Source: an uncultured Gammaproteobacteria bacterium
GTDB taxonomy: Bacteria > Patescibacteriota > Patescibacteriia > UBA9934 > GWF2-40-263
DNA length: 64,000 nt
NCBI GenBank assembly: GCA_964399675.1
Contig: CAYNRK010000003.1
Span: forward strand, 73,033 to 137,032
Direction: 5' to 3'
Shown here: positions 7,700 to 64,000 of the stretch, one piece after another
Numbering within the stretch: position 1 is the stretch's first letter
Layout: each line of letters starts with the position of its first letter
Position numbers and translations under genes: made by a program
The notes under the pieces: generated by a model
The model's database searches: none
Told to the model about the DNA's origin: nothing
The model's input: only the letters and a program-made list of their open reading frames with translations

Positions 7700-7710
7700 A
7701 AAAAGAAATC

Positions 7711-7746
7711 CCGCACGAGAAGCGCAAGGCTTCGTCTGTGCGGGGT
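7711..7746 (-). terminator. intrinsic terminator of GC-rich gene A
   Basis: On the minus strand, the hairpin cccgcacagacgaagccttgcgcttctcgtgcggg is followed by ATTTCTTTTT. Confidence 0.6.
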
Positions 7747-7765
7747 GTTGTCTTCTTGCGAGTAG

Positions 7766-8317
7766 CTACCTCGCGATCGAAGTTCGCTCGAAGAAGATGC
7801 CGTTACAGAGAACGTGGCTGGGGCCGGCCGATCCCTCGTAGGAACCGACGTGTTCGATGGCCCGTCCGAAACGTTGGAAGTGCTCCATCATGGACTTCAG
7901 GAGCTCGGTCGCATCGTCACTGCGATCGATTTCGGATCCGCCTCGCACCTCGCTTTCACTGAGGTAGAGATCGATCTTGCCGTCGACGTCGACGTACCAC
8001 CGTACCGGATCACCGCCGGGTGAGGCCAGGGTCAGCACGAGGAACGGCTGCTTGAAGGGTCCCGGATTCTCTGGGTCGTAAGGCAAGTGCTTCAGGTCTT
8101 GCCTCTTGGACTTGAGACCAAGGGCGATCTGCAACCCCTCCCGAGACACCACGGTGGGGTCCACGGACAGGAGATCACTCAACAGGCCAGACTCGAGAAG
8201 TCTCTGCAACACATCTCCATCGAGCCCCTGCTCGGAGATCAGCTGAAGGACAGCATGTGCCTGTGCGAGCGTTGCGGGCTTCTCACGATCAGATCGGACT
8301 GCGCTTCCTTGTGGCAT
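7766..8317 (-). CDS. GC-rich foreign ORF A, hypothetical protein (183 aa)
   Basis: Roughly 60% GC in an AT-rich context. A strong SD (ctAAGGAGGaactgcgATG) precedes the start and the gene has its own terminator. The protein composition is protein-like on the minus strand. No family recognised. Confidence 0.6.
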   Translation of the reverse strand: MPQGSAVRSDREKPATLAQAHAVLQLISEQGLDGDVLQRLLESGLLSDLLSVDPTVVSREGLQIALGLKSKRQDLKHLPYDPENPGPFKQPFLVLTLASPGGDPVRWYVDVDGKIDLYLSESEVRGGSEIDRSDDATELLKSMMEHFQRFGRAIEHVGSYEGSAGPSHVLCNGIFFERTSIAR

Positions 8318-8420
8318 CGCAGTTCCTCCTTAGTAAACGGCCGACGACATTGCCTGCCGAAAAGACATTTCAGCATATTATGTAAACTTTGTCAATTAGA
8401 AAGGGTCCAGATTGGGCGAA

Positions 8421-8442
8421 CTTGCTTGATTTTTTGGTTGAT
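8421..8442 (+). repeat. junction repeat J2 (right half only: CTTGCTTGATTTTTTGGTTGAT)
   Basis: 22-mer shared with J1 and J3, lying between GC-rich gene A and the RhuM-like cassette. Confidence 0.5.
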
Positions 8443-8639
8443 AAAACATACAGTCTTAGATGTTGTTTGTGCGAAATGAATTCGTATATGCACTAGTTAA
8501 GCGACATGCTAAATATCGAAAATTAGAAGATTCCGTGCTTACGGTCATTGTTCCTGTCCACGAAAAAGATCTTCGTTATGGCACATTCCGATCTATTTTA
8601 CGTCAATCAAAATTTTAACTGATAAATTGGTTTTAAATT

Positions 8640-9278
8640 ATGAACAAAAAAGATAATTCAATCGTTTTATTTCATGAAAAACAGGTTCGTCGTTATTGGG
8701 ATAATGAAAAAGAGCTTTGGTATTTTTCAATTGTAGATGTAATTGAAATTCTTACTGACTCGACTATTCCAAGAAGATACTGGAGCGATCTTAAAGGTAA
8801 ATTAAAAAAAGAAGGAAGTGAAGTGTACGAAAAAATCGTACAGTTGAAAATGATTGCTCCAGATGGAAAAAAAAGAGACACGGATTGTTTTTCTACTGAA
8901 GATTTACTTCGTGTTATTCAATCAATTCCTTCACCAAAAGCTGAACCTTTTAAATTATGGCTTGCTAAAATTGGACACGAAAGAATTGAAGAAACTGAAG
9001 ACCCAGAACTTGCTTTTGAAAGAGCCATGCAAACGTATCTTAAAAAAGGACATTCTAAAGATTGGATTAATCAAAGGCTTAAAAGTATTGAAGTCAGAAA
9101 AGAATTAACTGATGAATGGAAAGAAAAAGGTATGAAAGAAGGTTTGGAATATGCAATTTTAACAGACGAAATTACAAAAGCTTGGGCTGATAAATCAGTA
9201 AAACAATACAAGACTTTCAAGAGTCTTAAAAAACAGAGTTTGAGAGACAACATGACCAATCTTGAATTGGTTTTATAA
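8640..9278 (+). pseudogene. RhuM/Bro-N-like (DinD-type) protein, C-terminally truncated
   Basis: 212 aa. The N-terminus (VRRYWDNEKELWYFSIVDVIEIL) looks Bro-N-like and the ORF ends at ...LRDNMTNLELVL directly before junction repeat J3. Family members I recall are about 100 aa longer. Confidence 0.5.
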
Positions 9279-9283
9279 AGGGG

Positions 9284-9344
9284 GCCAGGTACGTTAATCG
9301 TAGCGTTATCAAATCGAGCGTAGAGGCTTGATTTTTTGGTTGAG
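9284..9344 (+). repeat. junction repeat J3 (full copy) with terminator hairpin
   Basis: cgttaatcgtagcgttatcaaatcgagcgtagaggcttgattttttggttga, nearly identical in architecture to J1. Confidence 0.6.
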
Positions 9345-9406
9345 ATTTGACATATATAACGCGTTGCGTTATTATTAACGGCGCTCATTATTAACAGCTC
9401 TTTTGT

Positions 9407-9688
9407 ATGATTCAGAGTTTCGCTGATAAAGAATCAGAGAAGTTGTTTCAGAGGCAACGTTCCAAAAAACTTCCAACAAATATTCAAAAAACTGCTTATA
9501 GAAAATTGCTCATGCTAAGTGCTGCGGTGAACATAAATGATTTACGTGTTCCGCCAGGCAATTGGTTGGAGAGATTAAAAGGAGATCGAAAAAAAGAACA
9601 TAGTATTCGAATTAATGATCAATGGAGAATTTGTTTCATCTGGAAGAATGGAAATGCACATCATGTCAAAATCGAAGACTATCATTGA
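9407..9688 (+). CDS. higB: HigB toxin (RelE/ParE superfamily, plasmid maintenance killer protein)
   Basis: 93 aa. MIQSFADKESEKLF...LKGDRKKEHSIRINDQWRICFIWKNGNAHHVKIEDYH is a textbook HigB pattern. Confidence 0.8.
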   Translation: MIQSFADKESEKLFQRQRSKKLPTNIQKTAYRKLLMLSAAVNINDLRVPPGNWLERLKGDRKKEHSIRINDQWRICFIWKNGNAHHVKIEDYH

Positions 9689-9729
9689 GAAAAGCAAAAA
9701 AATAAGAAAAAAATATGCGCGTCGCCAAA

Positions 9730-10020
9730 ATGATCACCATCGTCCATCCAGGAGAGATCCTTAATAAGGAATTTTTAAAGCCACTTGAAATTTCACAGTA
9801 TCGGTTAGCAAAAGATATTAGTGTTCCACCGCGGCGTATTAACGAAATCGTACTCGGAAAGCGATCGATAACAGCCGACACCGCTCTGCGTCTGTCGCGA
9901 TATTTCAAAATGTCACCAGAGTTTTGGATGAATCTACAATCACATTACGATCTTGAAATGCAGAGCGACAAGATTGGAAAGCGGTTAGAGCAAGAGGTTT
10001 CTGTTGGTGTGTTTGCTTAG
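9730..10020 (+). CDS. higA: HigA antitoxin, XRE-family HTH
   Basis: MITIVHPGEILNKEFLKPLEISQYRLAKDISVPPRRINEIVLGKRSITADTALRLSRYF matches the HigA/VapI HTH. It lies immediately downstream of higB. Confidence 0.8.
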   Translation: MITIVHPGEILNKEFLKPLEISQYRLAKDISVPPRRINEIVLGKRSITADTALRLSRYFKMSPEFWMNLQSHYDLEMQSDKIGKRLEQEVSVGVFA

Positions 10021-10572: not shown

Positions 10573-10805
10573 GCTGCACAGAACTTGACGTCTCTCCCTC
10601 AATACGATACGATTTTTTTGTTGCGGGGACAAAGGACAAGTGGTTTCAAAAGCTGCCAACAGAGACAAAGGGTCAAGGCTGAGAGCCCTTTGAGGAAAGT
10701 CTGATATCACACCACCTTTTGAGCAACACCTACAAAGTAAGGGGTTAATCGGTGAGAAAAACCAATTAACAATTCGGGTGGAACCGTCTGGCCTTTAAGC
10801 TGGAT

Positions 10806-10838
10806 CCCGAAGCTTCACTTGCGTGAAGTTTTTTGTTT
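10806..10838 (+). terminator. intrinsic terminator
   Basis: cccgaagcttcacttgcgtgaagtt followed by TTTTGTTT. Confidence 0.6.
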
Positions 10839-12811: not shown

Positions 12812-12840
12812 TTGACAGAATCGGTATTTATGTTAAGTTG
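12812..12840 (+). promoter_or_regulatory. promoter-like element of GC-rich gene B (-35 TTGACA)
   Basis: gTTGACAgaatcggtatttatgttaagttg has a perfect -35, but the -10 is ambiguous. Confidence 0.35.
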
Positions 12841-12875
12841 ATTTGCCGACTCACAGGGTAAGGAGGTGATTCATC

Positions 12876-13361
12876 ATGGCCTCTGTTGCAAGGCTTGCAG
12901 GAAGAGATCCTCGCATTGCACAGGTCTTTGACGAGGCCTTTGCAAACTCACCAGCGCTAGCAGCGTTTCTGACAACGCGAGTGCGCAATATGGGCGGAAC
13001 CGTGCTTGTTGCGCGGCTCTTGGTCAAGCATCTGACCAGCCTATTTCGTGGCGTGTTTCCCCATGTGAACAAGCATGTTGTGGACCGCTTTGACATATGG
13101 CCTCATCAGAGGTCTTTCCCTGCAATGGTCGAGGAACTGCTCGGCGGGGAGACACTTCTGAGAAGGGCTGCCATACTCCACACAAGCATCAGGGGTCGTG
13201 TGGAGATTCCGCCAGGCGCTACCCGCGTGAGGGATTGCACCATCAGGCCAAGACGCGGCACGCACGAGTCCTTGTGCGAGCCCGTGGTCTACGCCTTCTA
13301 CTGCGCATGCGCAATGCTGCGCAATCTACGACTTCCGCAGCCGGTTGCTGCGGCAGCATAA
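12876..13361 (+). CDS. GC-rich foreign ORF B, hypothetical protein (161 aa)
   Basis: Roughly 60% GC with a perfect SD (AAGGAGGTGAttcatcATG) and its own terminator. No family recognised. Confidence 0.6.
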   Translation: MASVARLAGRDPRIAQVFDEAFANSPALAAFLTTRVRNMGGTVLVARLLVKHLTSLFRGVFPHVNKHVVDRFDIWPHQRSFPAMVEELLGGETLLRRAAILHTSIRGRVEIPPGATRVRDCTIRPRRGTHESLCEPVVYAFYCACAMLRNLRLPQPVAAAA

Positions 13362-13362
13362 C

Positions 13363-13393
13363 TGGGACTCATCCGAGTCCTGTTTCTTTTTCT
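13363..13393 (+). terminator. intrinsic terminator of gene B (TGTTTCTTTTTCT tail)
   Basis: The hairpin gggactcatccgagtcc is followed by tgtttctttttct. The same TTTCTTTTT tail occurs after the other GC-rich modules. Confidence 0.6.
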
Positions 13394-13448
13394 CAACGAC
13401 GTCCAGCCCCTTTTCTTTTACATGTTTTTTTGTTACAGTCCGCGCATT

Positions 13449-14789
13449 ATGGATTCAGAATCAAAGCCAAAATATCATATCATCACCTTTGGTTGCCAGA
13501 TGAACAAAAGCGATTCAGAACGCATGGCCAGCTTGCTTAATGGTGTTGGTTTAGAATCAACAGATGAAAAAGAAAAAGCTGACGTGATTCTTGTGAACAC
13601 ATGCTCAGTTCGCAAAAGCGCTGAGGATCGGGTTTTTGGTAAAATCAAATCATTCAAATTACTTAAAAAAGAAAAACCGAATTTGATTATTGGAATAACC
13701 GGTTGCATGCCAGGGCGTGACAGAGAAGGTGCAATGTTGAGAAAGCTTCCGATTGTTGATCTGTATTTTCCAACCGCGGACATGGGGCAACTGCCAAGAT
13801 GGATTGGTGAGCTTCGACCGGAACTTGTTAATAGCGAGGATATTGTTGAGGATTATTTAAAAATCAAACCAGAGTATCATAGTAAGCATCAGGCATTTGT
13901 AAGTATTCAAACCGGGTGCAACAATTTTTGTACTTATTGTGTTGTGCCTTTTGCAAGAGGCCTTGAAAAAAATCGGCCGCTCAAAGATATTTTGGATGAG
14001 ATTAAAGATTTGAGCGATCACGGAGTTGTTGAGATCACTTTGCTTGGTCAGACAGTTAATAGTTACATTGCGCAAGATCCTGAAAATTTTTCAAAAGACA
14101 ATCCATACAAAGATCACTTTGCTGCGCTGCTTTGGGAAGTCAATCAGATCAAAGGAATTTCTCGTCTTCACTTTACAGCTCCGCACCCGCTTCACATGAC
14201 TGATGAAATTATTGATGCCATGACACTGCCGGCGCATTTGAATTTTATTCATCTGCCGGTTCAATGTGGGGATGATGAAATTTTGCGCAAGATGAATCGT
14301 CGCTATACGTCCAAGCAGTTTTTGGAAGTAATTGATCGTTTGCGCGCAAAGATTCCAAACATTGCCATTGCCACAGATATCATTGTTGGGTTTTGTGGTG
14401 AAACAGAAGAGCAGTTTGAGAAAACAGTTGAGATGTACAAAAAGGTTCGTTTTGATATTTCCTATACTGCGCGTTATTCAGAAAGATCAGGGACTGCAGC
14501 TTGGCGAGCTTTTGAAGATGATGTATCGCATGCTGAAAAGAAAAGACGTTGGTTTGTTTTGCAAAAACTTATGGAGCAGATTACGTTTGAGAAAAACCAA
14601 TTGTTTGTTGGAGAAACTGTTTCTGTTTTGGTTGAACGTTATGAGTCGGAATATTGTTATGGAAATTCCAGAGAATTAAAATTGGTAAGGTTTCCAAGCG
14701 ACAAAAATCTTACAGGCGAGATTGTTAATGTTAAAATTGATATGGCTGACAAATGGATTTTGACTGGTTTATTGTCAGATATTAAATAA
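13449..14789 (+). CDS. miaB: tRNA-2-methylthio-N6-dimethylallyladenosine synthase (radical SAM MTTase)
   Basis: N-terminal KYHIITFGCQMNKSDSE, a CxxxCxxC radical-SAM cluster (CNNFCTYC) and a TRAM C-terminus. Confidence 0.9.
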   Translation: MDSESKPKYHIITFGCQMNKSDSERMASLLNGVGLESTDEKEKADVILVNTCSVRKSAEDRVFGKIKSFKLLKKEKPNLIIGITGCMPGRDREGAMLRKLPIVDLYFPTADMGQLPRWIGELRPELVNSEDIVEDYLKIKPEYHSKHQAFVSIQTGCNNFCTYCVVPFARGLEKNRPLKDILDEIKDLSDHGVVEITLLGQTVNSYIAQDPENFSKDNPYKDHFAALLWEVNQIKGISRLHFTAPHPLHMTDEIIDAMTLPAHLNFIHLPVQCGDDEILRKMNRRYTSKQFLEVIDRLRAKIPNIAIATDIIVGFCGETEEQFEKTVEMYKKVRFDISYTARYSERSGTAAWRAFEDDVSHAEKKRRWFVLQKLMEQITFEKNQLFVGETVSVLVERYESEYCYGNSRELKLVRFPSDKNLTGEIVNVKIDMADKWILTGLLSDIK

Positions 14790-14802
14790 TAGTTATTTAT
14801 TT

Positions 14803-14931
14803 TGTCATCTCGACCGAGCGAAGCGAGTGGAGAGATCTCGAATTTACAGGATCGATCATTCAAGATTTCTCGGCTCGCGGAGCCTGTCCTGAGCGAACGA
14901 AGTGAGTCGAATGGGCTCGCTCGAAATGACA
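14803..14931. mobile_element. MITE-like palindromic repeat, family 1
   Basis: tgtcatctcgaccgagcgaagcgagtggagagatctcgaa...cgaaatgaca, lying between miaB and miaA. Confidence 0.75.
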
Positions 14932-14968
14932 TTAGTAATTGATTGATCGAGACAACAAAAACAAAAAT

Positions 14969-21530: not shown

Positions 21531-24500
21531 TTATTGTTTCAACACGCCATTGATTTGTTTTTCAAGAAATTTGTATTCTGCGGTTTGTTGTAATCCTGCG
21601 TTTTCCATTTCTGCAAGAACACGAGTTTTTGACAGTGTGTCTACAAAGTAGGCTGTTCTTCTTGTGATCCAGTCAATACCCGATTTTTCAGATTTTGCAA
21701 TTCTGTTTACAATAGCAAACAACTCACCTCTTGATTTTCCGAGTTTTTTCAAGGCTGCGTCTTCGTTGTACCAAGTTCCTTTTTCTGTAAATGCAAAATC
21801 AGTGACTTTTCCCCCGTCATATTTGAATTTTACCTTCATTCCTTTTTTACTAAGGGTTGTTTCAACGGGTGATTCTAGTTTTGTTTCAGGAGTTTCTTCG
21901 GACGGGATTTCTTGTTCTTGTTGAGTTTCTGCTGAAGCTTCGGTTGTGGGTTCTTCTGTTCCAGCTTCCGCTGCTTCTGCTTGAGCAGCCGCAGCTTCGG
22001 CTTCTGGTTTAGCAGGTTCCGGCGCAGGTTCTGGAGCGGGTTCAGGAGATTCTTCCGGTATTGGCGGTTTTCCTTCACGAACTCGTTTTGCCATTTCTTC
22101 AACGTTTCGAGCCACATCACCTTGGTGTGCAGCTTCTTCTGTTGAATTGTCCCGAATGATTCTTGCAATATCATCAGTTTGTCCATCGATTCGTCTCTGG
22201 ATGAGTTTTGCAATTTCACCACTTTCTTCTTCTGTTGAATCTAAATTGGCGATTGCTAATTTATCAGCCTCAACTTGTTTTATAATCCAATCAAGATCCT
22301 GCATGCGTGTGTCAGGTGCTCTAAGCAGAAATCCAATTTGTTCTTTTGAAAGATTTTGTTTTTCAAGTAGTTTTGCAAACTCAGCTTTGTCTAGTTTATC
22401 CGGAGTCTCAACAATTGGAGCAATTTTGTCAGCGGCTCTTCCGATTTCAGCCCTACGTGCTTCTGTCATTGGTTCAGCTTCTGCGTCAGCTGCTTTTGCA
22501 TCCGGTCCTGGTTCAGGCTTAGCTGCTGCGTCTGGTTGTGTGGCTGTGGTCTGAGCTTCTGGTTCTGGGGCAGGTGGAGCTTCTACGGCTGCTGGAGGAG
22601 CCGTGGCAGGGGTTTCTGGCGCTGCTGCTGGTGTTTCCGCATCACTATCAGCTGCGTCTGGTACGGCTTGGGCTTCTACTTTTGGAGCGGGTGTTGGATC
22701 TTCAAATTTTTCGTATTCCGGCTTTTTGTAGTTATAAACAATTCCTTTTTCTTGAAGTTCTTCCATGTCAGCCGGTTTGCCTGACTCAGTATCCACAAAA
22801 GTAAAATTGATCTCACCATTTTCACCTGGACTAATTGCAATAGCGACCTTATCCACCCCTTTAGCACTTAAACCAGTCCATCCACCCTCTTCAGTATGAA
22901 GGGCTTTTTTTGCAGCAATAAACGCAGTTTTGCGAACCCATTTTTTAACTACTTTTGCATCATTTATATCACCTTGATAGCCAAATTTTTCTGGATCAGC
23001 TTTTAGTTGACGCTGAGCAATTCTAATAATTCCATCACCTTTTTGAATAGTTGCTTGTTCAATTTGTTCTTCTGAAAATTCAGGAGCTTCTTCAGCTGCA
23101 GCTTCGGTTGCTTGTTCAGCATCAGCGGTTGGTTCTGCGTCAGCAGCAGCTTCTGTTTTTGGTTCTGGTTCAACCTCTTTTGCATCAGCGGTTGGCTCAG
23201 GCTCAGTGTTAGGGGTAGGTTCTGATTCGGGAGCTTCTTCGGCCTCTGGCACTGCTTCTGCTTGCTCTACCTCCGGTTCCGGTGCTTCAACTTCCGTACC
23301 TTCAACTGCAGTTATTTCTGTATCAGTTTTAGCTGACAGAACATCTGAAGCCGCCTGTTTTGCAGTTTTTTCAGAAAGCAAACCAAAAGTGACTTTGTCT
23401 AATTGTTCAGAAAAACTATCACCAGCATATCCAGCAGCACCTTTTTCTTCCAAACCCTGAAGTGCTTTTTCAATTGCACCAGAGACACCGCCTTCGCCTG
23501 ATAATTCTCCGCCAGCCAGAGTTGCAAAACCTGCAAAACGTGCAACAGTTCCGGCTGCTTGTACTGCATTTAGAATTTTTTGTTTTTTGGTTTCACCTTC
23601 TTTTAGAGTTAGTTTACGCCATGTTTCTGAAAAACCATTGACTACAAGTTCTTTTGCCAATCCTTCTGTACGCTCACCCGATTCCCGCTCTTGTTGGACT
23701 TTTTTATAACGTTCAAGCAGTGCAATGGCTCCATATCCAACACCTCGTAATGTGGCAAGTCCGGTTGAGATCAGAGCAGTGTTAAGAGATTCCTTTAAGG
23801 CCGCTGTTCCTTTGACTCGAGTTTGAATAAATTGATCCAGCAGTTCGGCTGTCTCTTGGTGTTGTTCTTCCTCAATATCACCAGAATCTTCGCGCTGTTT
23901 TTCAAGAATTTCCTGAACACGTGCAAGCATTTCTGTTTTCTTTTCTGCTGATAAAAATACAGATTCATTTATTTTGGTTTCTAAAGCTCGCTTTCTTGCT
24001 ATTATCGGAGCTGCATCAAGTGCTATTTGTTCTGCATGATAATCACGAAAGCCTGTTTCAGGATCAATAAACGCCGATTCATCAAGTTCTATATCTCCAT
24101 ACTCAGCATTTTCAAAAGATTCCAAGATCCGTTGTTTTTCTTTTCCGGTTGTATATTTTTGAAAAAACCAAGCTGGCACGTCATGTAAAGATTTAAAACC
24201 ACCAAGGCTGGCTGCAATACCAAGAGCTCCAACTCCAACCGCTTTTGCAATTTGAGTTTTGTTCATTTCAGCTTCATCTTCCTCTGGTAAACGTTCGCCG
24301 CGAAATTTTTTGTAAAGATTTGATGCGCGATCTCTAAAACCTCCAGCAATAGACCGAAGCACACTCCGACTTTCTGTTGCTGGGTCTTGAGGTTCTCCTT
24401 CTGCTTCTTCTGGTGAACCAACAGCTTCTGGTGAGGCATCAGGTTCTGTAATTGGATCTAGAAATTCAGATATGTCAGGTAGGTCACTGTCCGGAGCTGA

Positions 24501-24551
24501 CTCAGTGCCACCAGTATCAAATGGGCCGGGTGTTGGTGCTTCTGGACTCAT
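21531..24551 (-). CDS. large acidic low-complexity protein (Ala/Glu/Pro-rich repeats), hypothetical, possibly surface-associated
   Basis: 1006 aa with PEPAPEPAPEPAKPEAEAAA-type tracts between globular segments. No family recognised. Confidence 0.55.
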   Translation of the reverse strand: MSPEAPTPGPFDTGGTESAPDSDLPDISEFLDPITEPDASPEAVGSPEEAEGEPQDPATESRSVLRSIAGGFRDRASNLYKKFRGERLPEEDEAEMNKTQIAKAVGVGALGIAASLGGFKSLHDVPAWFFQKYTTGKEKQRILESFENAEYGDIELDESAFIDPETGFRDYHAEQIALDAAPIIARKRALETKINESVFLSAEKKTEMLARVQEILEKQREDSGDIEEEQHQETAELLDQFIQTRVKGTAALKESLNTALISTGLATLRGVGYGAIALLERYKKVQQERESGERTEGLAKELVVNGFSETWRKLTLKEGETKKQKILNAVQAAGTVARFAGFATLAGGELSGEGGVSGAIEKALQGLEEKGAAGYAGDSFSEQLDKVTFGLLSEKTAKQAASDVLSAKTDTEITAVEGTEVEAPEPEVEQAEAVPEAEEAPESEPTPNTEPEPTADAKEVEPEPKTEAAADAEPTADAEQATEAAAEEAPEFSEEQIEQATIQKGDGIIRIAQRQLKADPEKFGYQGDINDAKVVKKWVRKTAFIAAKKALHTEEGGWTGLSAKGVDKVAIAISPGENGEINFTFVDTESGKPADMEELQEKGIVYNYKKPEYEKFEDPTPAPKVEAQAVPDAADSDAETPAAAPETPATAPPAAVEAPPAPEPEAQTTATQPDAAAKPEPGPDAKAADAEAEPMTEARRAEIGRAADKIAPIVETPDKLDKAEFAKLLEKQNLSKEQIGFLLRAPDTRMQDLDWIIKQVEADKLAIANLDSTEEESGEIAKLIQRRIDGQTDDIARIIRDNSTEEAAHQGDVARNVEEMAKRVREGKPPIPEESPEPAPEPAPEPAKPEAEAAAAQAEAAEAGTEEPTTEASAETQQEQEIPSEETPETKLESPVETTLSKKGMKVKFKYDGGKVTDFAFTEKGTWYNEDAALKKLGKSRGELFAIVNRIAKSEKSGIDWITRRTAYFVDTLSKTRVLAEMENAGLQQTAEYKFLEKQINGVLKQ

Positions 24552-26163: not shown

Positions 26164-26219
26164 CGCATTATTCATAGGTCTTATAGGACCAATAGGACCT
26201 ATGAATAATGCGTTTTTTA
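26163..26219. terminator. bidirectional terminator: 21 bp-arm perfect palindrome
   Basis: aacgcattattcataggtc...gacctatgaataatgcgtt followed by TTTTT, between convergent genes. Confidence 0.65.
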
Positions 26220-26278
26220 ATTGAAATACCGCCCTCGTCTCCGAAGAGACAAGGGCGGCAGTGAGGACGGTTGCGATC

Positions 26279-27694: not shown

Positions 27695-27797
27695 CTGTCC
27701 TCCGGTCGCATAAAGCGAGTGAGGGAGCCTGGAAAATCCGTCCAGTACGGTTTTGGTGCAACTTGCACCAATCTCGGAATCGCACCGAGAACGACTA

Positions 27798-27826
27798 ATA
27801 ATAGCACAAAAATGCGGTTTTGTCAA
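27798..27826 (-). promoter_or_regulatory. sigma70-type promoter of gene C (TTGACA-N17-TATTAT)
   Basis: Minus-strand reading ttgacaaaaccgcatttttgtgctattat, with a perfect -35 and a 17 nt spacer. Confidence 0.5.
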
Positions 27827-29853: not shown

Positions 29854-30078
29854 TTAAGATTTTATTGAAATAAGTTGTTCAAGTCCAAGGTTGAGGAGCC
29901 AATCAAGCCCGCCAAAGAATCCTGCAATTACAAGCGCGAGTATTATCACAATAACTGAATATTTTGTGGTTTCTTGCTTGGATGGCCAAGTGACTTTTTT
30001 CATTTCTTCTTTTGACTCTTTAACATATCGAAAAAGCCATTGGATTGGGTTTTCTTTCTTTTTGGAAAGTGGTTGCAT
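29854..30078 (-). CDS. secE: preprotein translocase subunit SecE
   Basis: 74 aa with a single C-terminal TM helix, in the conserved position upstream of nusG. Confidence 0.85.
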   Translation of the reverse strand: MQPLSKKKENPIQWLFRYVKESKEEMKKVTWPSKQETTKYSVIVIILALVIAGFFGGLDWLLNLGLEQLISIKS

Positions 30079-30120
30079 AATTTTGGTATTTAAAAACAGC
30101 CTTTGCGGCCATCTGAGAAG

Positions 30121-30149
30121 ACTATACTATATGTAGTTATTTTTGGCAA
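30121..30149 (-). promoter_or_regulatory. sigma70-type promoter for secE-nusG-rplKA (TTGCCA-N17-TATAGT)
   Basis: Minus-strand reading ttgccaaaaataactacatatagtatagt. Confidence 0.45.
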
Positions 30150-30179
30150 GAGAAGTTTGAGAAAGATAAAACCGCCAGA

Positions 30180-30540: not shown

Positions 30541-30542
30541 CT

Positions 30543-30571: not shown

Positions 30572-30590
30572 GGGGCTTTTTATCAATTTT

Positions 30591-32675
<2,085 letters not shown>

Positions 32676-38165: not shown

Positions 38166-38175
38166 TCATTTTTTT

Positions 38176-44671: not shown

Positions 44672-44700
44672 TTGACATTTTTGGGATTTTGTAGTAATTT
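44672..44700 (+). promoter_or_regulatory. sigma70-type promoter of GC-rich gene D (TTGACA-N17-TAATTT)
   Basis: aTTGACAtttttgggattttgtagTAATTT, preceded by the hairpin tctgcccgcagctgagctgcgggcaga. Confidence 0.45.
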
Positions 44701-44801
44701 TTACGTCCTGTCAACACAAGGTTGACGCTGTACGCACGACAGTAAATTCGTGCACAAGTATCCAGACACTTCGGTGCCGCTAAGGATACGAAAGGATAGT
44801 C

Positions 44802-45584
44802 ATGGGACAGTTCGCTGTCAGCGATGGACAGAGACTCAAGGTCTTTGATCAATGTGTGGATCTGCAACGCCGCCTGAGAGAAGGTGGTCTGGATCCCGAA
44901 CTGATGAGCGTGGGTCTTCAGGCGCTTCTTACCGGGGTTGATCCAGAAGAGCTTGCAGCTGCTCGTGGCAAGCGCGAACAGCCTGCCAAGCGCAATCTCG
45001 CCGCGGAACGCCGTAACGAGATCACGGCGTTCTACCGCGGTCTCGGGTTTGACACGCTCGAGATCCCTGTGCCCACCATGGGCGGTAAGCGCGTTTCCAA
45101 CAATGAGTTCGGCCGTCGAGCCAAGGCTGGTCAGGCGCTCTTCTTTCGTCCGGCTACCTCACTCATTTCCTACAACAGGTTCATGACTGCTGTGGGTCAG
45201 ATGGATCATTGGACAGTACTCGATGAGGCCGAGTGCGAGAACATCGCCTGGGAGCCAACAGAGACTGGCTACTGGTTCTGGGCTGAGATCCAGGATTCCT
45301 GCCTCCGCGTGGGTACATCCTGGAACGATTTGACGGCCGAGCACAACCTCCTCTGCCTGGAGGAGTACATGATCGTCTGGCACGTCATGCGCGTGCTCGA
45401 GAGCATCATGATCGATTGTGAGACTTGGTCATGGCTACGCACTCGCTACCAGGCCGTTCCTGGCCCCAGTGCTCTCTACGCCCTCATGCATTACGATGAG
45501 GTGCATGTTGGCTGGAACAGGTCTAGGGGTCTCTCGCTTGGCCACCGCGAAACGGGTGGTCGTATCGCGGAAAAGCTCGTCTGA
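44802..45584 (+). CDS. GC-rich foreign ORF D, hypothetical protein (260 aa)
   Basis: Roughly 58% GC with an SD aAAGGAtagtcATG. The composition is protein-like (W/Y/H/E-rich C-terminal half). No family recognised. Confidence 0.55.
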   Translation: MGQFAVSDGQRLKVFDQCVDLQRRLREGGLDPELMSVGLQALLTGVDPEELAAARGKREQPAKRNLAAERRNEITAFYRGLGFDTLEIPVPTMGGKRVSNNEFGRRAKAGQALFFRPATSLISYNRFMTAVGQMDHWTVLDEAECENIAWEPTETGYWFWAEIQDSCLRVGTSWNDLTAEHNLLCLEEYMIVWHVMRVLESIMIDCETWSWLRTRYQAVPGPSALYALMHYDEVHVGWNRSRGLSLGHRETGGRIAEKLV

Positions 45585-45634
45585 GTTCGGTCAACTCTTC
45601 GCTCAGGCTAAAGCCTGGGGCTACCACAGCATCT

Positions 45635-45669
45635 GCCCGCTGAGTTTTGCTCGGCGGGTGTTTCTTTTT
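45635..45669 (+). terminator. intrinsic terminator of gene D (TGTTTCTTTTT tail)
   Basis: gcccgctgagttttgctcggcgggtgtttcttttt. Confidence 0.55.
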
Positions 45670-45708
45670 ATGATAAACTGTCTTTATCAATACTTATCTT
45701 TTTTCTTT

Positions 45709-50074: not shown

Positions 50075-50172
50075 TGTCATCTCGACCGAGGCCAAAGGCC
50101 GAGCGGAGAGATCTCGAATCTGCGAGATCCCTCGGCTTCGGCCCGTCGGACGGGCCTTCGCTCGGGATGACA
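50075..50172. mobile_element. MITE-like palindromic repeat, family 1
   Basis: tgtcatctcgaccgaggccaaaggccgagcggagagatctcgaatctgcgagatccctcgg...cgggatgaca. Confidence 0.75.
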
Positions 50173-50180
50173 GAAAAAAT

Positions 50181-52346: not shown

Positions 52347-52437
52347 GTGTCATTGCGAGAAGGCTCGTCAGACGAGCCGACGAAGCAATCCTCGTATACG
52401 AAGATTGCTTCGCCCACTTCGTTCGCTCGCAATGACA
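52347..52437. mobile_element. MITE-like palindromic repeat, family 2
   Basis: tgtcattgcgagaaggctcgtcagacgagccgacgaagcaatcctcgtatacgaagattgcttcgcc...cgcaatgaca. Confidence 0.7.
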
Positions 52438-56177: not shown

Positions 56178-56340
56178 GGTCATTGCTTTTCTTCCCGCGT
56201 CACTGCTCTCCCCCTGCGTCGTTGCGAGCGAAGCGAAGCAATCTCCGTAAAGAACTATGGGGGACAGTCACGTTGTATATAATTTCGGCAGTACTCGCGT
56301 GGCTCCGTGCTGGCGAAATTATATACAACGTACCTGTTGT
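56178..56340. mobile_element. composite palindromic repeat, family 2' (homologous to 57241-57440)
   Basis: cgttgcgagcgaagcgaagcaatctccgtaaagaa...acgttgtatataatttcggcag...cgaaattatatacaacgt. About 160 bp are shared with the 57.3 kb copy. Confidence 0.65.
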
Positions 56341-56383
56341 GGAGATACTGACAGTTTGTTGGAGGGTTGTGAAAGGCTTTTGG

Positions 56384-56472: not shown

Positions 56473-56650
56473 TGTCATCTCGACCGAGCGAAGCCGAGGG
56501 GTCTCGCATATTGGAACAACACGATTCGAGATCTCTCCGCTCCGGCCCGTCTGACGGGCCTCCGGTCGAGATGACATTAAAGAAACGCTCCGGTCGAAAT
56601 GACATGTATCAGTTGTCATCCCGAGCGAAGCCGAGGGATCTCGAATTATG
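56473..56650. mobile_element. family-1 MITE, one full plus one partial tandem copy
   Basis: tgtcatctcgaccgagcgaagccgagg...cggtcgagatgaca followed by cggtcgaaatgaca...tgtcatcccgagcgaagccgagggatctcgaat. Confidence 0.7.
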
Positions 56651-57240: not shown

Positions 57241-57440
57241 CGCCTTTCACCCTGTGTCATTGCGAGGCCTGAAAGGCCGAAGCAATCCTCGTATCATCAC
57301 CCTGCGTCGTTGCGAGGAGGCCCGTCAGACGGGCCGACGAAGCAATCTCCGTAAAGAATTTTGGATGACAGTCACGTTGTATAATTTCGGCAGACTCGCT
57401 TCGCTCGTGCTGGCGAAATTATCCAACGTACCTGTTAATG
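57241..57440. mobile_element. composite palindromic repeat, family 2 plus 2'
   Basis: tgtcattgcgaggcctgaaaggccgaagcaatcctcgtat then cgttgcgaggaggcccgtcagacgggccgacgaagcaatctccgtaaagaa...cgttgtataatttcggcag...cgaaattatccaacgt. Confidence 0.65.
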
Positions 57441-57445
57441 GTGAC

Positions 57446-58243
57446 ATGAGTGTTCGTCGGAAGTTTGTAAAAAATATGAAAACAACAATCAAAAATAGAA
57501 AGGGGGAGAAGGTATCAGTTCTAGTTGAGCAAGTTGAGAATCAAAAAGGTTTGGCTTTTGTTGTGCATGGACTTGGTGGGTTTAAAGAGCAGCCGCATAT
57601 TACAAAAATGGCCGACGTGTTTAAATCAAATGGTATTTCAGTTGTTCGGTTTGATACAACAAACACTTTGGGAGAAAGTGATGGAAATTATGAAGATGCA
57701 ACAGTTACGAATTATTATGAGGATCTAGAGGATGTTATGGCTTGGTCGGGGTCGCAAGAGTGGTATGAAGAACCGTTTTGGTTGGCAGCGCATAGTTTAG
57801 GTGGAATTTGTATTAGTTTGTTTGCCGAGAAGCATCCAGAAAAAGTAAAAGCTTTGGCGCCGATTTCTACAACAGTTTCAGGGAAGTTGAGTCTGGAAAC
57901 ACCGTCCTATGAAAAAGATAAAAAAGGTTGGGAAGAGACAGGGTGGCTCGTTCAGGAGAGTATTTCAAAGCCTGGCGAAGTTAAACGACTTAAGTGGTCT
58001 CACATGGAGGACAGATTGAAATATGATTTACTTCCAGAGGCTCATAAGTTAACCATGCCGGTTTTGTTGGTTGTTGGCTCAAAGGATGAATCAACTCCAG
58101 TTGGTGATCAAAAGATTTTATTTGATGCATTGCCTGAACCAAAAGAGATCCATGTGATAGATGGATCTTGTCATAATTTTAGAAAAGAAGAGTATCGGGA
58201 GGAGTTAGGTGAGATTTTTGATAATTGGATTAAGTCTATTTAG
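57446..58243 (+). CDS. alpha/beta-fold hydrolase
   Basis: HGLGG oxyanion region, the nucleophile elbow AHSLGG and a C-terminal His (DGSCHNF). Confidence 0.65.
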   Translation: MSVRRKFVKNMKTTIKNRKGEKVSVLVEQVENQKGLAFVVHGLGGFKEQPHITKMADVFKSNGISVVRFDTTNTLGESDGNYEDATVTNYYEDLEDVMAWSGSQEWYEEPFWLAAHSLGGICISLFAEKHPEKVKALAPISTTVSGKLSLETPSYEKDKKGWEETGWLVQESISKPGEVKRLKWSHMEDRLKYDLLPEAHKLTMPVLLVVGSKDESTPVGDQKILFDALPEPKEIHVIDGSCHNFRKEEYREELGEIFDNWIKSI

Positions 58244-58600: not shown

Positions 58601-59215
58601 TTACACTGGATTGAATTGACGTATGACGGCTCTGACAACCCCCTGGATAATACAATCCTGAACAAATATCGGATCCATGGTGCTGTTAGCAGGTTGAAGC
58701 CTAATGCGATTTCTCTCTCTATAAAACCGTTTCAGTGTTGCATAGGCATTGTCCAGCAAGGCTACAACAACCTCACCGTTTTTTGGAGATGGATTTCTTT
58801 CGATCACAACATAATCTCCATCATAAATTCCATCGTCAATCATTGATTTTCCTTTAACTTGCAATACATAAGAGTTTTCACCATCAACAACAAAGTTTAC
58901 TGGTACAGCCATTGTTTCATTTTGTTCAACAGCTTCAATTGGTTCACCTGCAGTAATCAGTCCAGACAAGGGGAGTAGTACTGCCATTTCAAATGGTTTT
59001 GCATGTACAAGTTCCATTGACCTAGCTTCGCCATCATGACCAAGTGTGATCTTGCCCTTTTCTGCAAGAGCTTGCACGTGTGCATGAACAGTGGCAGGGG
59101 AGGATAGGCTAAAGTGCTCGCCAATCTCTCTGTAAGATGGTGCATATCCAAAGTCTTCTACATAAGAACGAATAAAAGCCAGAACCTCTGTTTGTTTTTT
59201 GGTTAAATTAGACAT
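58601..59215 (-). CDS. lexA: LexA repressor
   Basis: N-terminal wHTH (LTKKQTEVLAFI) and an S24 peptidase domain with the Ala-Gly cleavage site and Ser/Lys dyad (GKSMIDDGI...). Confidence 0.85.
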   Translation of the reverse strand: MSNLTKKQTEVLAFIRSYVEDFGYAPSYREIGEHFSLSSPATVHAHVQALAEKGKITLGHDGEARSMELVHAKPFEMAVLLPLSGLITAGEPIEAVEQNETMAVPVNFVVDGENSYVLQVKGKSMIDDGIYDGDYVVIERNPSPKNGEVVVALLDNAYATLKRFYRERNRIRLQPANSTMDPIFVQDCIIQGVVRAVIRQFNPV

Positions 59216-59222
59216 ATTTTTT

Positions 59223-59330
59223 TGTCATTTCGACCGAGCGCTAGCGAGTGGAGAAATCTCGAATTACGTTTTCAACATTCGAGATCCCTCGGCTTCGCCC
59301 GGCAGCTGCCGGGCTTCGCTCGGGATGACA
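59223..59330. mobile_element. MITE-like palindromic repeat, family 1, between the lexA start and its promoter region
   Basis: tgtcatttcgaccgagcgctagcgagtggagaaatctcgaat...cgggatgaca. Confidence 0.7.
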
Positions 59331-59335
59331 GGGTT

Positions 59336-59400
59336 AGTTCGTTTTATGTTCGTATTATATCCGAACAAAAATCGAACACAAGAGTTGGGTTGTGGATAAA
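59336..59400 (-). promoter_or_regulatory. putative lexA promoter with GTTCG…CGAAC inverted repeat overlapping TATAAT (candidate SOS box)
   Basis: Minus-strand reading tgttcgatttttgttcggaTATAATacgaacataaaacgaac. A DnaA-box-like TGTGGATAA sits at 59391-59399. Confidence 0.3.
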
Positions 59401-59412
59401 AAGAAATGACCC

Positions 59413-59976
59413 TCAAGGGGTCATGTGGTGGGTTTGAGTGAGTGGCTTTCGTTTTGCCAAGACTGAAAGAGGCCAACAGACGCGTGTGTCTCCGTTGTCT
59501 CCTTGGACATCCTGGCGTGTAAAAGCGTACTCAATATCCCAGTCGCTGCTGAGCAGCCTGAGAAGAGTCTCGCGTCCGTAGATTTCAGGAACCCCACAAG
59601 CAGGTTTTGGAACAGGTGTTGCCGTTGCGGTTTCGATTGCAAGCAATCCACCAGGCTTTACGAACCTGTGAATTTTTGGCAGCAAATGGCCAAGCACGAA
59701 TCTTCTTGAAAGCCGTTCGAGTGCACCTCGCACGATAATGTAATCATGCGGCAGGCTTGGATCAAGAGATCTGAACCATTCCCAAATAGATCTGAGCTCC
59801 AAAAACACGCGTAGGCTTTGTGCTTCTGGAAACTCATGGTCAACGAAGATTACCTGTGACCCGTTTGCAGCAAGTGCATTTGCAAGAGGAACATTGGATG
59901 TTCCCAGGACGACCCCGATCTCACCAGGGCCGACTCTTTTGAGCAGGTCCGTGGTAAGAGGATCGTTTGCTAGCAC
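59413..59976 (-). CDS. class I SAM-dependent methyltransferase, moderately GC-rich (GTG start)
   Basis: Motif I (VLGTSNVPLANALAANGSQVIFVDHE). About 50% GC. It has its own TTGACA-N17-TACTTT promoter and a terminator with a TTTCTTTTT tail. Confidence 0.55.
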   Translation of the reverse strand: MLANDPLTTDLLKRVGPGEIGVVLGTSNVPLANALAANGSQVIFVDHEFPEAQSLRVFLELRSIWEWFRSLDPSLPHDYIIVRGALERLSRRFVLGHLLPKIHRFVKPGGLLAIETATATPVPKPACGVPEIYGRETLLRLLSSDWDIEYAFTRQDVQGDNGDTRVCWPLSVLAKRKPLTQTHHMTP

Positions 59977-60009
59977 TGGTTAAGCTCCTGTTGGATTGTG
60001 CGATGCTCC

Positions 60010-60038
60010 AAAGTAACAACTTTCCCCCATTCTGTCAA
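60010..60038 (-). promoter_or_regulatory. sigma70-type promoter (TTGACA-N17-TACTTT) for the methyltransferase
   Basis: Minus-strand reading tgTTGACAgaatgggggaaagttgtTACTTT. Confidence 0.4.
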
Positions 60039-61754: not shown

Positions 61755-61761
61755 ATTAACT

Positions 61762-62895
61762 ATGAACAAGAAACACAGGTTCGGATTTTACGTGCCTGTG
61801 TTTTTGATTTTATTGATTGCGTTGCCGTTTGTTGTTTCAGGTTTTCTTGTTAATCGTATGTCATCCCGACCGAGCGAAGCGAGCGGAGGGATCTCGAATA
61901 CGCGAGATCTCTCCGTTCCGTCCGGCCAAAGGCCAGACTCCAGTCGAGATGACACAAAGGTTCCTCTCCCAACAGAAGTCCGCGGGATTTATTGGACAAG
62001 TTCAACAGCACATTCAAAACGAGCTGATCAGTTGCTTTCGTACATGAAATCAACCGGACTAAACACAGTTGTTATTGATCTTAAAACAGACGCAGGTAAA
62101 GTTGTGATGACTGATCCCACAGTTCTGGAGAAGTTGGCTGAGGAAAATATTTATCGAATCGCCAGACTTTCAGTAATGCGAGATGGTGCTTATGCGCGCG
62201 AGCATCCAGAGTTTGCACTCAAGTCAGCAACAGGGGATTTTTGGTATGACAACATTGGTTCGGTCTGGGTTGATCCTGCAGCTGAGCAAGTTTGGGAGAA
62301 TGCGATTGTGCTGGCAAAAGAGGCTTATGCAAATGGATTTGATGAGATCCAATTTGATTACGTTCGTTTTCCTTCGGACGGAGCAGTGAGTTCAATTAAA
62401 TATCCTGTTTATAATTTTTCAAAATCAAAAGCTGAGGTAATGGAAAAGTTTTTTGAGTTTGTTGGAGGTGAAATGATGCAAGAGGGTATTCCTGTTTCTT
62501 TTGATTTGTTTGGTATGACATTTTGGACTTTTGAAGATTTTAGAATCGGACAGAGACTCATAGATGTTTTGCCAAATGCAGATTTTATTTCACCAATGGT
62601 TTATCCGTCACATTACCCCGATTGGTTTGAGGGGTATGGAAATCCAGCGGAGTATCCATACGAGATTGTAAAACGTTCGCTTGATGAGGGAACAAAGTTA
62701 ATGCGAGGATTCTTTTCTGGTAGTGAAAAAGAACTTAGAAACAAATTTAGACCATGGATTCAAGATTTTGACATTGGCGCAGTTTATACTTCTGAAAAAA
62801 TAGAAGCACAAATAAAAGCTTGTCGCGATGCGGGCGCGTCCGGTTGGATTTTGTGGAATGCGCGTAATGTTTATGAGCCAGCAAATTATCAATAA
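61762..62895 (+). CDS. glycoside-hydrolase-like TIM-barrel protein (DUF4015/GHL-type) with in-frame MITE insertion after the N-terminal TM segment
   Basis: FDEIQFDYVRFP block. A family-1 MITE at 61858-61954 encodes MSSRPSEASGGISNTRDLSVPSGQRPDSSRDDTKV. Confidence 0.55.
   Translation: MNKKHRFGFYVPVFLILLIALPFVVSGFLVNRMSSRPSEASGGISNTRDLSVPSGQRPDSSRDDTKVPLPTEVRGIYWTSSTAHSKRADQLLSYMKSTGLNTVVIDLKTDAGKVVMTDPTVLEKLAEENIYRIARLSVMRDGAYAREHPEFALKSATGDFWYDNIGSVWVDPAAEQVWENAIVLAKEAYANGFDEIQFDYVRFPSDGAVSSIKYPVYNFSKSKAEVMEKFFEFVGGEMMQEGIPVSFDLFGMTFWTFEDFRIGQRLIDVLPNADFISPMVYPSHYPDWFEGYGNPAEYPYEIVKRSLDEGTKLMRGFFSGSEKELRNKFRPWIQDFDIGAVYTSEKIEAQIKACRDAGASGWILWNARNVYEPANYQ
61858..61954. mobile_element. family-1 MITE inserted in-frame within a CDS
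   Basis: tgtcatcccgaccgagcgaagcgagcggagggatctcgaatacgcgagatctctccg...cgagatgaca. Confidence 0.75.
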
Positions 62896-62896
62896 T

Positions 62897-63163
62897 ATGA
62901 TTTTTATAAAAGAGGTAAACCCGTTTCCTAATGCAAGTTTTTTGGTTAAAGTCGAATCTGATAAGACAACCGAACATAAGGTTGGGCTTGAAGAAAGTTA
63001 TTATCAAAAACTCACTGAAGGCAAAGTCGCGCCAGAAAAGTTGATTAAAAAGTCGTTTGAATTTCTTTTGGCTCGCGAGCCAAACACATCGATTTTAAGA
63101 TCGTTTGACTTGCCAATGATTGGGCAGTATTTTCCTGAATACGAAAAGGAGATAAAAAAGTAA
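62897..63163 (+). CDS. hypothetical protein (88 aa)
   Basis: The ATG lies directly after the upstream stop. No family recognised. Confidence 0.4.
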   Translation: MIFIKEVNPFPNASFLVKVESDKTTEHKVGLEESYYQKLTEGKVAPEKLIKKSFEFLLAREPNTSILRSFDLPMIGQYFPEYEKEIKK

Positions 63164-63216
63164 GGACATTAATTTCTCATATGGGAAAATAATGTTCAAT
63201 TAATTTGTTTTTGTTT

Positions 63217-63789
63217 ATGTTGAACCAATTGTCATTTTTAAAAAATATATCTTGGGACGAAGTGTTTTCTGTTTGGAAAGCGCACGAGGGTGCGGATCCT
63301 GTTTGGCAAGAGTTTGCTAAAAAAGAAAAAGGTTGGGGTTCATGGGAAGAGTGGCGCAGCAATCAGTCTGAATTTATAAATGCACAGGATCGAGAATGGA
63401 AGCTTTATGAGATCAGATGTCCAAACGAGCTTATCCCAAAATTTCGCATTGGGCCATTTAATGGTTGGCAAAAACATTTTGAAAAAAAGAACGTTTATAC
63501 ATTTGAAGATTTGGTTCAGAGAAAAACTGAATGGGTTTTGAATAATATTGGTGTTCAAGCCAGAAGAAATAATTTTCCAAAGAGTACACAGTTTATTGGA
63601 TTTTATCTTGAAGATGATGACGTTGTTGTTCTCTTTGAAGGTCATCATCGTGCAGCAGCTGTTGCGCTTGCTGCTTATGAAAAAAATCCTATTCAATTTG
63701 AAATAAATCCAACAATAGCTTTGACAATTTTAAAAGGTGATCAAACAGAATTTTTTGATCAGATTCTCCAGCATCGCTTTGAACGATGA
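63217..63789 (+). CDS. hypothetical protein (190 aa)
   Basis: AT-rich ORF with no family recognised. Confidence 0.45.
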   Translation: MLNQLSFLKNISWDEVFSVWKAHEGADPVWQEFAKKEKGWGSWEEWRSNQSEFINAQDREWKLYEIRCPNELIPKFRIGPFNGWQKHFEKKNVYTFEDLVQRKTEWVLNNIGVQARRNNFPKSTQFIGFYLEDDDVVVLFEGHHRAAAVALAAYEKNPIQFEINPTIALTILKGDQTEFFDQILQHRFER

Positions 63790-63796
63790 GGTGATG

Positions 63797-63825
63797 TTGA
63801 CACAAAGCGAAAATAATGATTAAAT
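63797..63825 (+). promoter_or_regulatory. sigma70-type promoter (TTGACA-N17-TTAAAT) at the start of another GC-rich module
   Basis: gTTGACAcaaagcgaaaataatgaTTAAAT. Confidence 0.4.
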
Positions 63826-63942
63826 ATCAATCCGAATTTCCGGGTTGATTCTTTTGTGCGTTAACCACAAAAGGACTGGAATTCTGGAAGCGCTGTGCGA
63901 TAACCACAGTGTTGGTGTCACTCTTTCACAATGGAGTCTGCG

Positions 63943-64000
63943 ATGACCAGACGAAAAGACAGGCGGTCGATCACCGAACTGATCGGCGAACTGGCTCTAC
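63943..64000 (+). CDS. GC-rich foreign ORF F, 3' end outside the window
   Basis: GC content rises abruptly after 63.85 kb. SD GGAGtctgcgATG, and the ORF begins MTRRKDRRSITELIGELAL. Confidence 0.35.
   Translation, partial: MTRRKDRRSITELIGELAL

Follow-up and report, generated by a model that had tools for sequence, protein, structure and literature searches.

The window analyzed here, i.e., 64,000 nucleotides (nt) of contig CAYNRK010000003.1 (assembly GCA_964399675.1, positions 73,033 to 137,032 of the forward strand), is part of the AT-rich chromosome (about 40% GC) of a Candidatus Uhrbacteria member of the Candidate Phyla Radiation (CPR) with a tiny genome. About ten GC-rich single-gene or single-RNA units, among them the modules A to I described below, form a separate accessory gene class and look like genes of GC-rich relatives. 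The modules differ from 56 host genes by four independent signals, namely, I) the GC content at third codon positions (GC3); II) the Shine-Dalgarno sequence (SD); III) a perfect -35 hexamer; and IV) the terminator tail. With about even confidence, they are read as self-contained, moron-like accessory cassettes that come from a pool of GC-rich genes shared across the clade and were inserted or exchanged at intergenic hot spots. In each unit, a promoter close to the sigma-70-type consensus would precede a strong SD, in most cases with a structured leader of some 100 nt, and a single gene or RNA would be followed by an intrinsic terminator; since the unit has its own promoter, ribosome-binding site, and terminator, we infer that it would be transcribed and expressed independently of, and insulated from, the flanking core operons. 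The proposed cargo is mixed, with a lectin-fold protein of a diversity-generating retroelement (DGR) family (D), a solenoid/barrel protein (C), small proteins (A, B, F, and G), and RNAs (E, H, and I).

The GC islands reported in a preliminary description of this DNA were borne out: the modules reach 0.53-0.62 GC in 400-nt segments versus a background of about 0.40, and together make up about 11% of the window. GC3 is 0.314±0.047 in the host genes (n=56; maximum 0.44) versus 0.71, 0.59, 0.81, 0.66, and 0.46 in the open reading frames (ORFs) of modules A, B, C, D, and G (z = 3.0-10.5 against the 56 host genes), with G the least deviant (z = 3), and 0.68 in F as completed from a longer scaffold (GC 0.58). 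The ribosomal-protein genes, although presumed to be highly expressed, are AT-rich. The encoded proteins follow the same trend, as their share of glycine, alanine, arginine, and proline is 0.27-0.38 versus 0.225 for the host, i.e., a GC-type amino-acid composition.

The expression signals set the modules apart as well. TTGACA occurs 11 times in the intergenic parts of the window, each time at a module or at the promoter of one HigB toxin-antitoxin pair and never upstream of a core gene; a perfect TTGACA -35 is present at every module, as had been claimed. Outside the modules, a TTGACA-N17-TATTAT promoter is present at HigB alone. The pattern TTGACA-N16-18-TANNNT occurs nine times in the window versus 2.5 expected, with seven of the nine at modules. 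Corrections concern the -10 hexamers: those of A and F are TGAAAT and TTAAAT, and B, said to lack a clear -10, has a candidate TAAGTT at a 16-nt spacer. Likewise, the strong SD ascribed to all coding modules holds for A, B, C, and G (match of 5-8 nt), while D matches over 4 nt only; host genes match over 1.6 nt on average, and none reaches 5 nt. A hairpin followed by a TTTCTTTT(T) tail ends A, B, D, and G, in agreement with the preliminary description, and also the newly added H and I. This motif occurs 19 times versus 6.5 expected. C, F, and a paralogue of D carry another tail, TTT(T)CAATT (TTTCAATT), and host terminators have plain T-runs. Overall, an own promoter and an intrinsic terminator are predicted around each unit, with the -35/-10 pattern at seven modules and a hairpin with a T-rich tail at eight. 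No recognizable SD precedes the core genes of the window genome and of most sampled Uhrbacteria relatives (loci L008-L030), which implies SD-independent initiation for the core proteome. The strong SD of the modules would probably offset GC-rich, structured mRNA in a host whose own genes start translation without one.

That the pattern reflects an assembly chimera or contamination, a possibility for which the abrupt change of GC content at the module borders might speak, has practically no probability left. The window matches the JGI contig Ga0118721_1000130, and two samples each from JGI and ENA and two Logan runs supply at least five independent assemblies with identical module-flank junctions, the contigs reaching up to 264 kb; an assembly chimera, for which the preliminary description had proposed a check, is therefore excluded. 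Module A with its flanks is 100% identical in six other assemblies, and module promoters directly and precisely adjoin host terminators. The surrounding chromosome is that of a member of Candidatus Uhrbacteria: GyrB is 75-82% identical to that of metagenome-assembled genomes (MAGs) with this label, gene order is strongly conserved with them, and the housekeeping ORFs include pheT, dnaE, thrS, miaB, gatB, gyrB, uvrD, prfA, prmC, tsf, lexA, and metK as well as the operon secE-nusG-rplK-rplA. The nearest GyrB relatives are Uhrbacteria MAGs whose loci have 0.47-0.615 GC, most relatives having 50-61%. In total, 120 loci from relatives or other contigs were compared (L-numbers), with L088 being another locus of the window's own genome; P-numbers denote D-family proteins.

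The best characterized cargo is that of module D (44672-45672, plus strand), which lies between tsf and gap and has a -35 TTGACA at 44672-44677, a -10 TAATTT at 44695-44700, a two-tier leader hairpin immediately before the SD (about 44755-44786), a coding sequence (CDS) for 260 aa with a C-type-lectin fold at 44802-45584, and a terminator hairpin followed by TTTCTTTTT at 45634-45672. The core of the protein is well conserved among 22 homologues, and its model, with a predicted local distance difference test (pLDDT) score of 86, adopts a C-type-lectin/formylglycine-generating-enzyme fold; TvpA and Mtd, both variable proteins of DGRs, are among its matches. Such variable proteins with a C-type-lectin fold are an established group (Wu et al. 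2018, PMC5758913). In the D family, the two-tier leader hairpin shows compensatory changes in four of 12 pairs, and therefore leader and gene travel together. A paralogue of D in the same genome, P0003 (53-58% identical to D; P0005 and P0006 share 72%), adjoins bAvd and a reverse transcriptase (RT) gene at L088, and 14 of the 15 mismatches between its variable repeat (VR) and template repeat (TR) fall at template adenines, the hallmark of a DGR. This complete DGR (L088 6001-10607, scaffold_13 16-29 kb), with VR at 6652-6775 and TR at 7145-7268, consists of the target P0003, bAvd, RT, and a 570-aa ORF, and stands beside uvrA and a gene resembling a pilin of type IV secretion systems. P0004, P0006, and a further family member at L092 also lie beside Avd/RT with VR/TR-like repeats. 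DGRs of CPR bacteria were reportedly described in 2017 by Paul and colleagues.

Module D differs from these DGR targets in its surroundings. No TR partner for D was found in the window or at the DGR of its genome, whose TR aligns to the 3' end of D with about 60% identity and many mismatches at positions other than A. Neither RT nor Avd was found near D, and the only RT and Avd seen in the genome are those at L088. D is an orphan or retired paralogue of a DGR variable protein. In a DGR cassette at L120, RT and Avd share 100% and 93% identity with those of the window genome, while the N-terminal third of its target, the leader, and the neighbors are unrelated, and thus mosaic exchange is evident.

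Module C (26213-27826, minus strand) is situated between rplA and a dCMP-deaminase/deoxyribosyltransferase gene (DCD). Its -35 TTGACA (27826-27821) abuts the rplA terminator and is followed by a -10 TATTAT (27803-27798), a leader of about 100 nt, an SD GGAGG, a CDS for 471 aa (27694-26279), and a UUCG-loop hairpin (26229-26259) followed by a TATTTCAATTAAAAAA tail. A word-indexed homology search of C returned C alone, a misleading result given that the full HMMER search yielded a family of 107 representative clusters of 400-520 aa, one of them named as a hypothetical protein of Candidatus Uhrbacteria. The AlphaFold model of C, built with 48 family members, has a pLDDT of 94 and shows an alpha-solenoid with a small C-terminal beta-barrel. 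No convincing structural or sequence relative was found outside the family, the family profile matched no PDB sequence, and Pfam scans of the 48 members gave nothing. Model confidence (pLDDT 94 and 86) and conserved alignments show both C and D to be real, folded proteins on which purifying selection acts. The earlier statement that the encoded proteins are all unrelated and unrecognized thus fails for C, with its 107-cluster family, and for D, with its 22 homologues.

The remaining coding modules encode smaller or less recognizable proteins. Module A (7698-8442, minus strand) has a -35 TTGACA (8395-8390), a -10 TGAAAT (8372-8367), an SD AGGAGG, a CDS for 183 aa (8317-7766; GC 0.60), and a terminator hairpin followed by ATTTCTTTTT (7728-7698). 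It is bracketed by 27-nt direct repeats (7671-7697 and 8416-8442) that are identical at 24 of 27 positions and duplicate the terminator of the upstream host gene, and its protein has three weak homologues only, each on a short contig. On either side of module A, at 7070-7610 and 9347-10020, are toxin-antitoxin pairs (ParE-like; HigB with a helix-turn-helix antitoxin) and a Bro-N protein. Module B (12812-13394, plus strand), between thrS and miaB, comprises a -35 TTGACA (12812-12817), the candidate -10 (12834-12839), the SD AGGAGGTG (12861-12868), a CDS for 161 aa with an isoelectric point of 10.9 (12876-13361), and a terminator hairpin with TTTCTTTTT (13363-13394), followed by a second hairpin-tail repeat (13405-13419); its coding status is the least certain among the modules (GC at first and second codon positions, 0.64 and 0.50). 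Of module F (plus strand), the window holds the start only (63797-64000), with a -35 TTGACA (63797-63802) and a -10 TTAAAT (63820-63825). Between promoter and start codon lies a terminator-like hairpin followed by TTCTTTTG (63827-63860), which might possibly act as an attenuator. The CDS runs from 63943 to about 65112, past the window end, and encodes 389 aa; its terminator tail is TTTTCAATTTCAA. The gene that follows F (L118 14091-14645, about 65251-65805 in window coordinates) encodes a phosphoribosyltransferase (Pfam E = 2e-20) and is also GC-rich (GC 0.54, GC3 0.64), and therefore the GC-rich class includes a gene of a recognizable enzyme family.

Module G (59394-60038, minus strand), between lexA and metK, has a -35 TTGACA (60038-60033), a -10 TACTTT (60015-60010), an SD AGGAG, a CDS for 187 aa (59976-59413), and a terminator hairpin with TTTCTTTTT (59424-59394). 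It had been called a methyltransferase, of which a weak likeness to Rossmann methyltransferases is what stands: the match to Pfam Methyltransf_23 (E = 0.009, 16 bits) stays under the cut-off of 27, the match to PADLOC mad2 has E = 7e-4, and a PDB sequence search gave no match. Proteins A, B, C, D, and G gave nothing over threshold in Pfam, NCBIfam, PHROGs, and PADLOC, F had no match in Pfam, and B, F, and G belong to no recognized family in the scans made. BLAST searches of the A, B, F, and G proteins against the 120 loci found no relatives.

Three modules are predicted to yield structured RNAs. Module E (30150-30532, minus strand), between the gyrB terminator and the secE promoter, has a -35 TTGACA (30532-30527) and a -10 TATCTT (30509-30504), and its putative product of about 340 nt folds with a minimum free energy (MFE) of -162.6 kcal/mol (z = -5.4). 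Described earlier as noncoding, E may carry an ORF of 23 codons (30380-30309) behind AGGAGGTG (30392-30385). The 2.16-kb gap between prfA and prmC contains no ORF of more than 134 aa and holds the two added modules, H and I, both on the minus strand. Module H (38327-39971; -35 TTGACA 39971-39966, -10 TAATCT 39948-39943, terminator hairpin with TTTTCTTTTT 38370-38327) is a transcript-like unit of about 1.6 kb with 34-40% A, nine CUUCGG (UUCG tetraloop) motifs, and internal repeat pairs at 38783/39049 and 39538/39753; its folding z-scores of -3.5 to -6.8 on the minus strand versus about -2 on the plus strand make it a candidate new large structured RNA. Module I (40040-40332; -35 TTGACA 40332-40327, -10 TATCTT 40309-40304) would give a structured RNA of about 250-290 nt with a long near-perfect hairpin (MFE -115.5 kcal/mol, z = -8.0), a terminator with CTTTCTTTT at 40122-40091, and a further hairpin at 40045-40080. 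In a search of the whole window, E, H, and I had no Rfam 15 match at gathering thresholds and nothing credible at E<=1 in 29900-30700 or 38100-40400, and BLAST against the 120 loci found no relatives.

The genes that flank modules are thrS, miaB, rplA, gyrB, secE, prfA, prmC, tsf, gap, lexA, and metK. Some units occupy sites that are empty in relatives. This is the case for H/I, as 42-70 bp separate prfA from prmC in L012 and L021 versus 2.16 kb here, with the gap filled by other sequences in L008, L011, and L013. Between gyrB and secE, 512 bp here compare with 226 bp in L121, the closest relative, and with 274-418 bp in L010-L016, and therefore E is lineage-specific. The same does not apply to C, whose site holds a homologue in L011 and L121. 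It is envisaged that the units enter by lateral transfer and recombination, probably at such recurrent intergenic hot spots. The shared insertion signature for which a check of the module flanks had been proposed was not found: flanking direct repeats were looked for at every module and occur at A only.

The source of the modules appears to lie within the clade. Their relative synonymous codon usage correlates with that of core genes of GC-rich Uhrbacteria (r = 0.80) and is anti-correlated with that of the host (r = -0.43), and at third positions their base frequencies are what a GC-rich genome would ordinarily show; base skew of an unusual kind, as a hint at a dedicated mutational process, was looked for and not seen. 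All named homologues of C and D belong to Candidatus Uhrbacteria; other homologues stand on CPR-like contigs. As far as we infer direction and mechanism of transfer, the unit DNA would come from a flexible GC-rich pool common to Uhrbacteria and related CPR bacteria. Members of the CPR spend their life attached to other cells, and the modules might, being GC-rich, have been taken from the episymbiont's host organism, e.g., one of the Actinobacteria, as the preliminary description had suggested. The clade-restricted homologues, the Uhrbacteria-like codon usage, and the absence of families of free-living bacteria among the matches in Pfam, NCBIfam, and PDB sequences make this origin very improbable.

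A common gene-delivery agent, the other source then proposed, fares little better. Cargo of an unseen CPR mobile element or phage, i.e., morons or satellites of a GC-rich virus or plasmid, would account for signals that are uniform and unlike those of the host, including the two shared tail types TTTCTTTT and TTTCAATT, for an architecture that equals that of phage morons (PMC3594210), and for the direct repeat around A; also, databases cover CPR phages poorly. There were no relatives in IMG/VR for A, B, C, D, F, and G, no match in GenBank phages for window positions 1-7600, C, D, and H+I, none in PHROGs for A, B, C, D, and G, and none among BFVD folds for C; the neighborhood consists of housekeeping genes, with neither an integrase nor a phage structural gene, and the named family members are chromosomal Uhrbacteria genes. 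Phage or plasmid cargo is considered unlikely. Of the repeated acquisition of self-contained units that had been proposed, the distinct composition and expression signals thus stand, while the host or partner source and the common delivery agent do not find support.

The cassette reading has to be weighed against a resident, vertically inherited, fast-evolving class whose GC-richness is held by selection (on mRNA structure, stability, or expression mode) or by GC-biased conversion at hot spots, an explanation that is doubtful, though clearly more plausible than phage cargo. Several observations speak for this resident class or otherwise against insertion from a pool. The positional homologues of C after rplA/DCD in L011 and L121 are 31% identical to it versus 75-88% for the neighboring genes, and C is GC-richer than its host in all three genomes (GC3 of the homologues 0.84 vs 0.54 and 0.61 vs 0.34); the promoter junction TTTTGGTTGACAAAACC after rplA is common to the window and L011. 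The DGR targets P0003, P0004, and P0006 have a GC3 of about 0.7 beside AT-rich Avd/RT genes (0.31-0.40) in three genomes (L088, L119, and L120; at L088, 0.59 GC for the target versus 0.36-0.40 for Avd and RT), and divergence between L088 and L119 looks vertical, with 55% for the target, 57% for RT, and 63% for UvrA. The in-genome paralogues of the D family (D/P0003 and P0005/P0006) are all GC-rich where measured, and the leader hairpin is kept with the gene. The idea that donor core genomes use an SD was rejected: core genes of GC-rich relatives lack it too, and therefore the SD is a property of the class rather than of a donor genome. No high-identity donor sequence was found, the scanned window ORFs revealed no integrase or transposase, no att-type signature was seen apart from the repeat around A, and copies in other samples are all 100% identical, so that gain and loss cannot be timed. 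Recent, non-ameliorated transfer alone, without recurrent replacement, cannot explain the GC-rich positional homologues and DGR targets; since positional homologues are GC-rich in other AT-rich relatives, either recurrent replacement or actively maintained GC-richness is needed.

A resident class sits poorly with other data. D-family genes are GC-richer than the host in some genomes and match it in many others (0.56/0.56, 0.54/0.54, and, in an AT-rich genome, 0.39/0.41), as expected from transfers at various stages, and genes with low, host-like GC exist (0.456 vs 0.417 in L094, 0.39 vs 0.41 in L105, and 0.38 vs 0.39 in L114). Module codon usage is that of GC-rich relatives, with no odd strand or base skew, no known force keeps GC3 at 0.7-0.8 where 56 other genes are at 0.31, and E and H/I are absent from relatives.

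Several known systems resemble the modules in part. Phage morons (Juhala/Hendrix 2000; reviewed by Cumby et al. 2012, PMC3594210) are likewise independent promoter-gene-terminator units of atypical composition that carry accessory cargo and are set between genes adjacent in relatives. The units described here differ in that they lie in a bacterial chromosome amid housekeeping genes, show no phage link or IMG/VR similarity that would place them in a phage or prophage, are GC-richer than the host, are in part structured RNAs, and, in the case of C, have positional homologues in related genomes. Genomic islets and acquired genes share the atypical GC, GC3, codon usage, and amino-acid composition and, like the modules, lie at intergenic hot spots that vary within a backbone of conserved gene order. 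As a rule, acquired genes exceed the recipient in AT content; the units here are GC-richer, of single-gene size, have uniform expression signals, and are without a link to tRNA, integrase, or insertion sequences. Integron cassettes are also single-gene mobile units, but the modules have their own promoter and terminator each and lack attC, an array, and an integrase (among the window ORFs scanned), the repeat around A being the sole shared flank repeat besides promoter and terminator motifs. With regard to DGRs, a GC-rich target beside host-like Avd/RT is not a described property.

Some further features of the window were recorded. GC-rich palindromic repeats of about 50-140 bp that resemble repetitive extragenic palindromic (REP) sequences or miniature inverted-repeat transposable elements (MITEs), e.g., TGTCATCTCGACCG...CGGTCGAGATGACA and GTCATTGCGAGG...CCTCGCAATGAC, are present in at least ten copies and account for several minor GC bumps; they lie at 2145-2267, 14782-14934, 38185-38315, 42682-42780, 50075-50177, 52349-52396, 56234-56374, 56484-56604, 57306-57472, 59203-59331, and 61859-61954, and some overlap the 5' ends of called ORFs. 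A 1006-aa ORF (21531-24551, minus strand) of no Pfam family has a GC3 of 0.22, local GC bumps, and several CTTCGG motifs, and is not in the syntenic region of L012, L014, and L121. The thrS leader (10600-10835) holds a GGGTGGAACCG motif that resembles that of a T-box, with a hairpin and a T-run behind it, and is probably a T-box attenuator, although Rfam reported none at the gathering threshold. Neither tRNA nor transfer-messenger RNA was found in the window.

CPR genomes are tiny, mostly passed on vertically, and of highly conserved gene order, and little is understood of how they gain and express accessory genes. While morons and atypical acquired genes were already known (PMC3594210), GC-rich, SD-bearing, and partly non-coding units in a CPR chromosome are new here; their cargo would comprise binding proteins specific to the lineage, with a DGR-type lectin fold, proteins whose folds are predicted with confidence, and three or more structured RNAs that are unclassified. 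The combination of high GC3, an SD, and TTGACA provides a recipe for recognizing the flexible gene pool of AT-rich CPR genomes. If nothing but horizontal transfer within the clade is involved, the modules would be an instructive yet ordinary case; the puzzle raised is that of GC-rich positional homologues beside AT-rich partners, e.g., the DGR target versus Avd/RT. More speculatively, and rather improbably on present evidence, the genomes of Uhrbacteria, and perhaps of other CPR bacteria, could be two-tiered, with an SD-less core whose composition drifts with the lineage and self-contained, SD-dependent, consensus-promoter units that remain GC-rich at any genomic GC and evolve very fast at fixed loci. 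Such a GC-rich class may take in DGR variable-protein genes and new structured RNAs, including the 1.6-kb UUCG-rich RNA, and may be kept up by recurrent cassette replacement, biased conversion, or mRNA selection, tied to the episymbiotic life of these bacteria.

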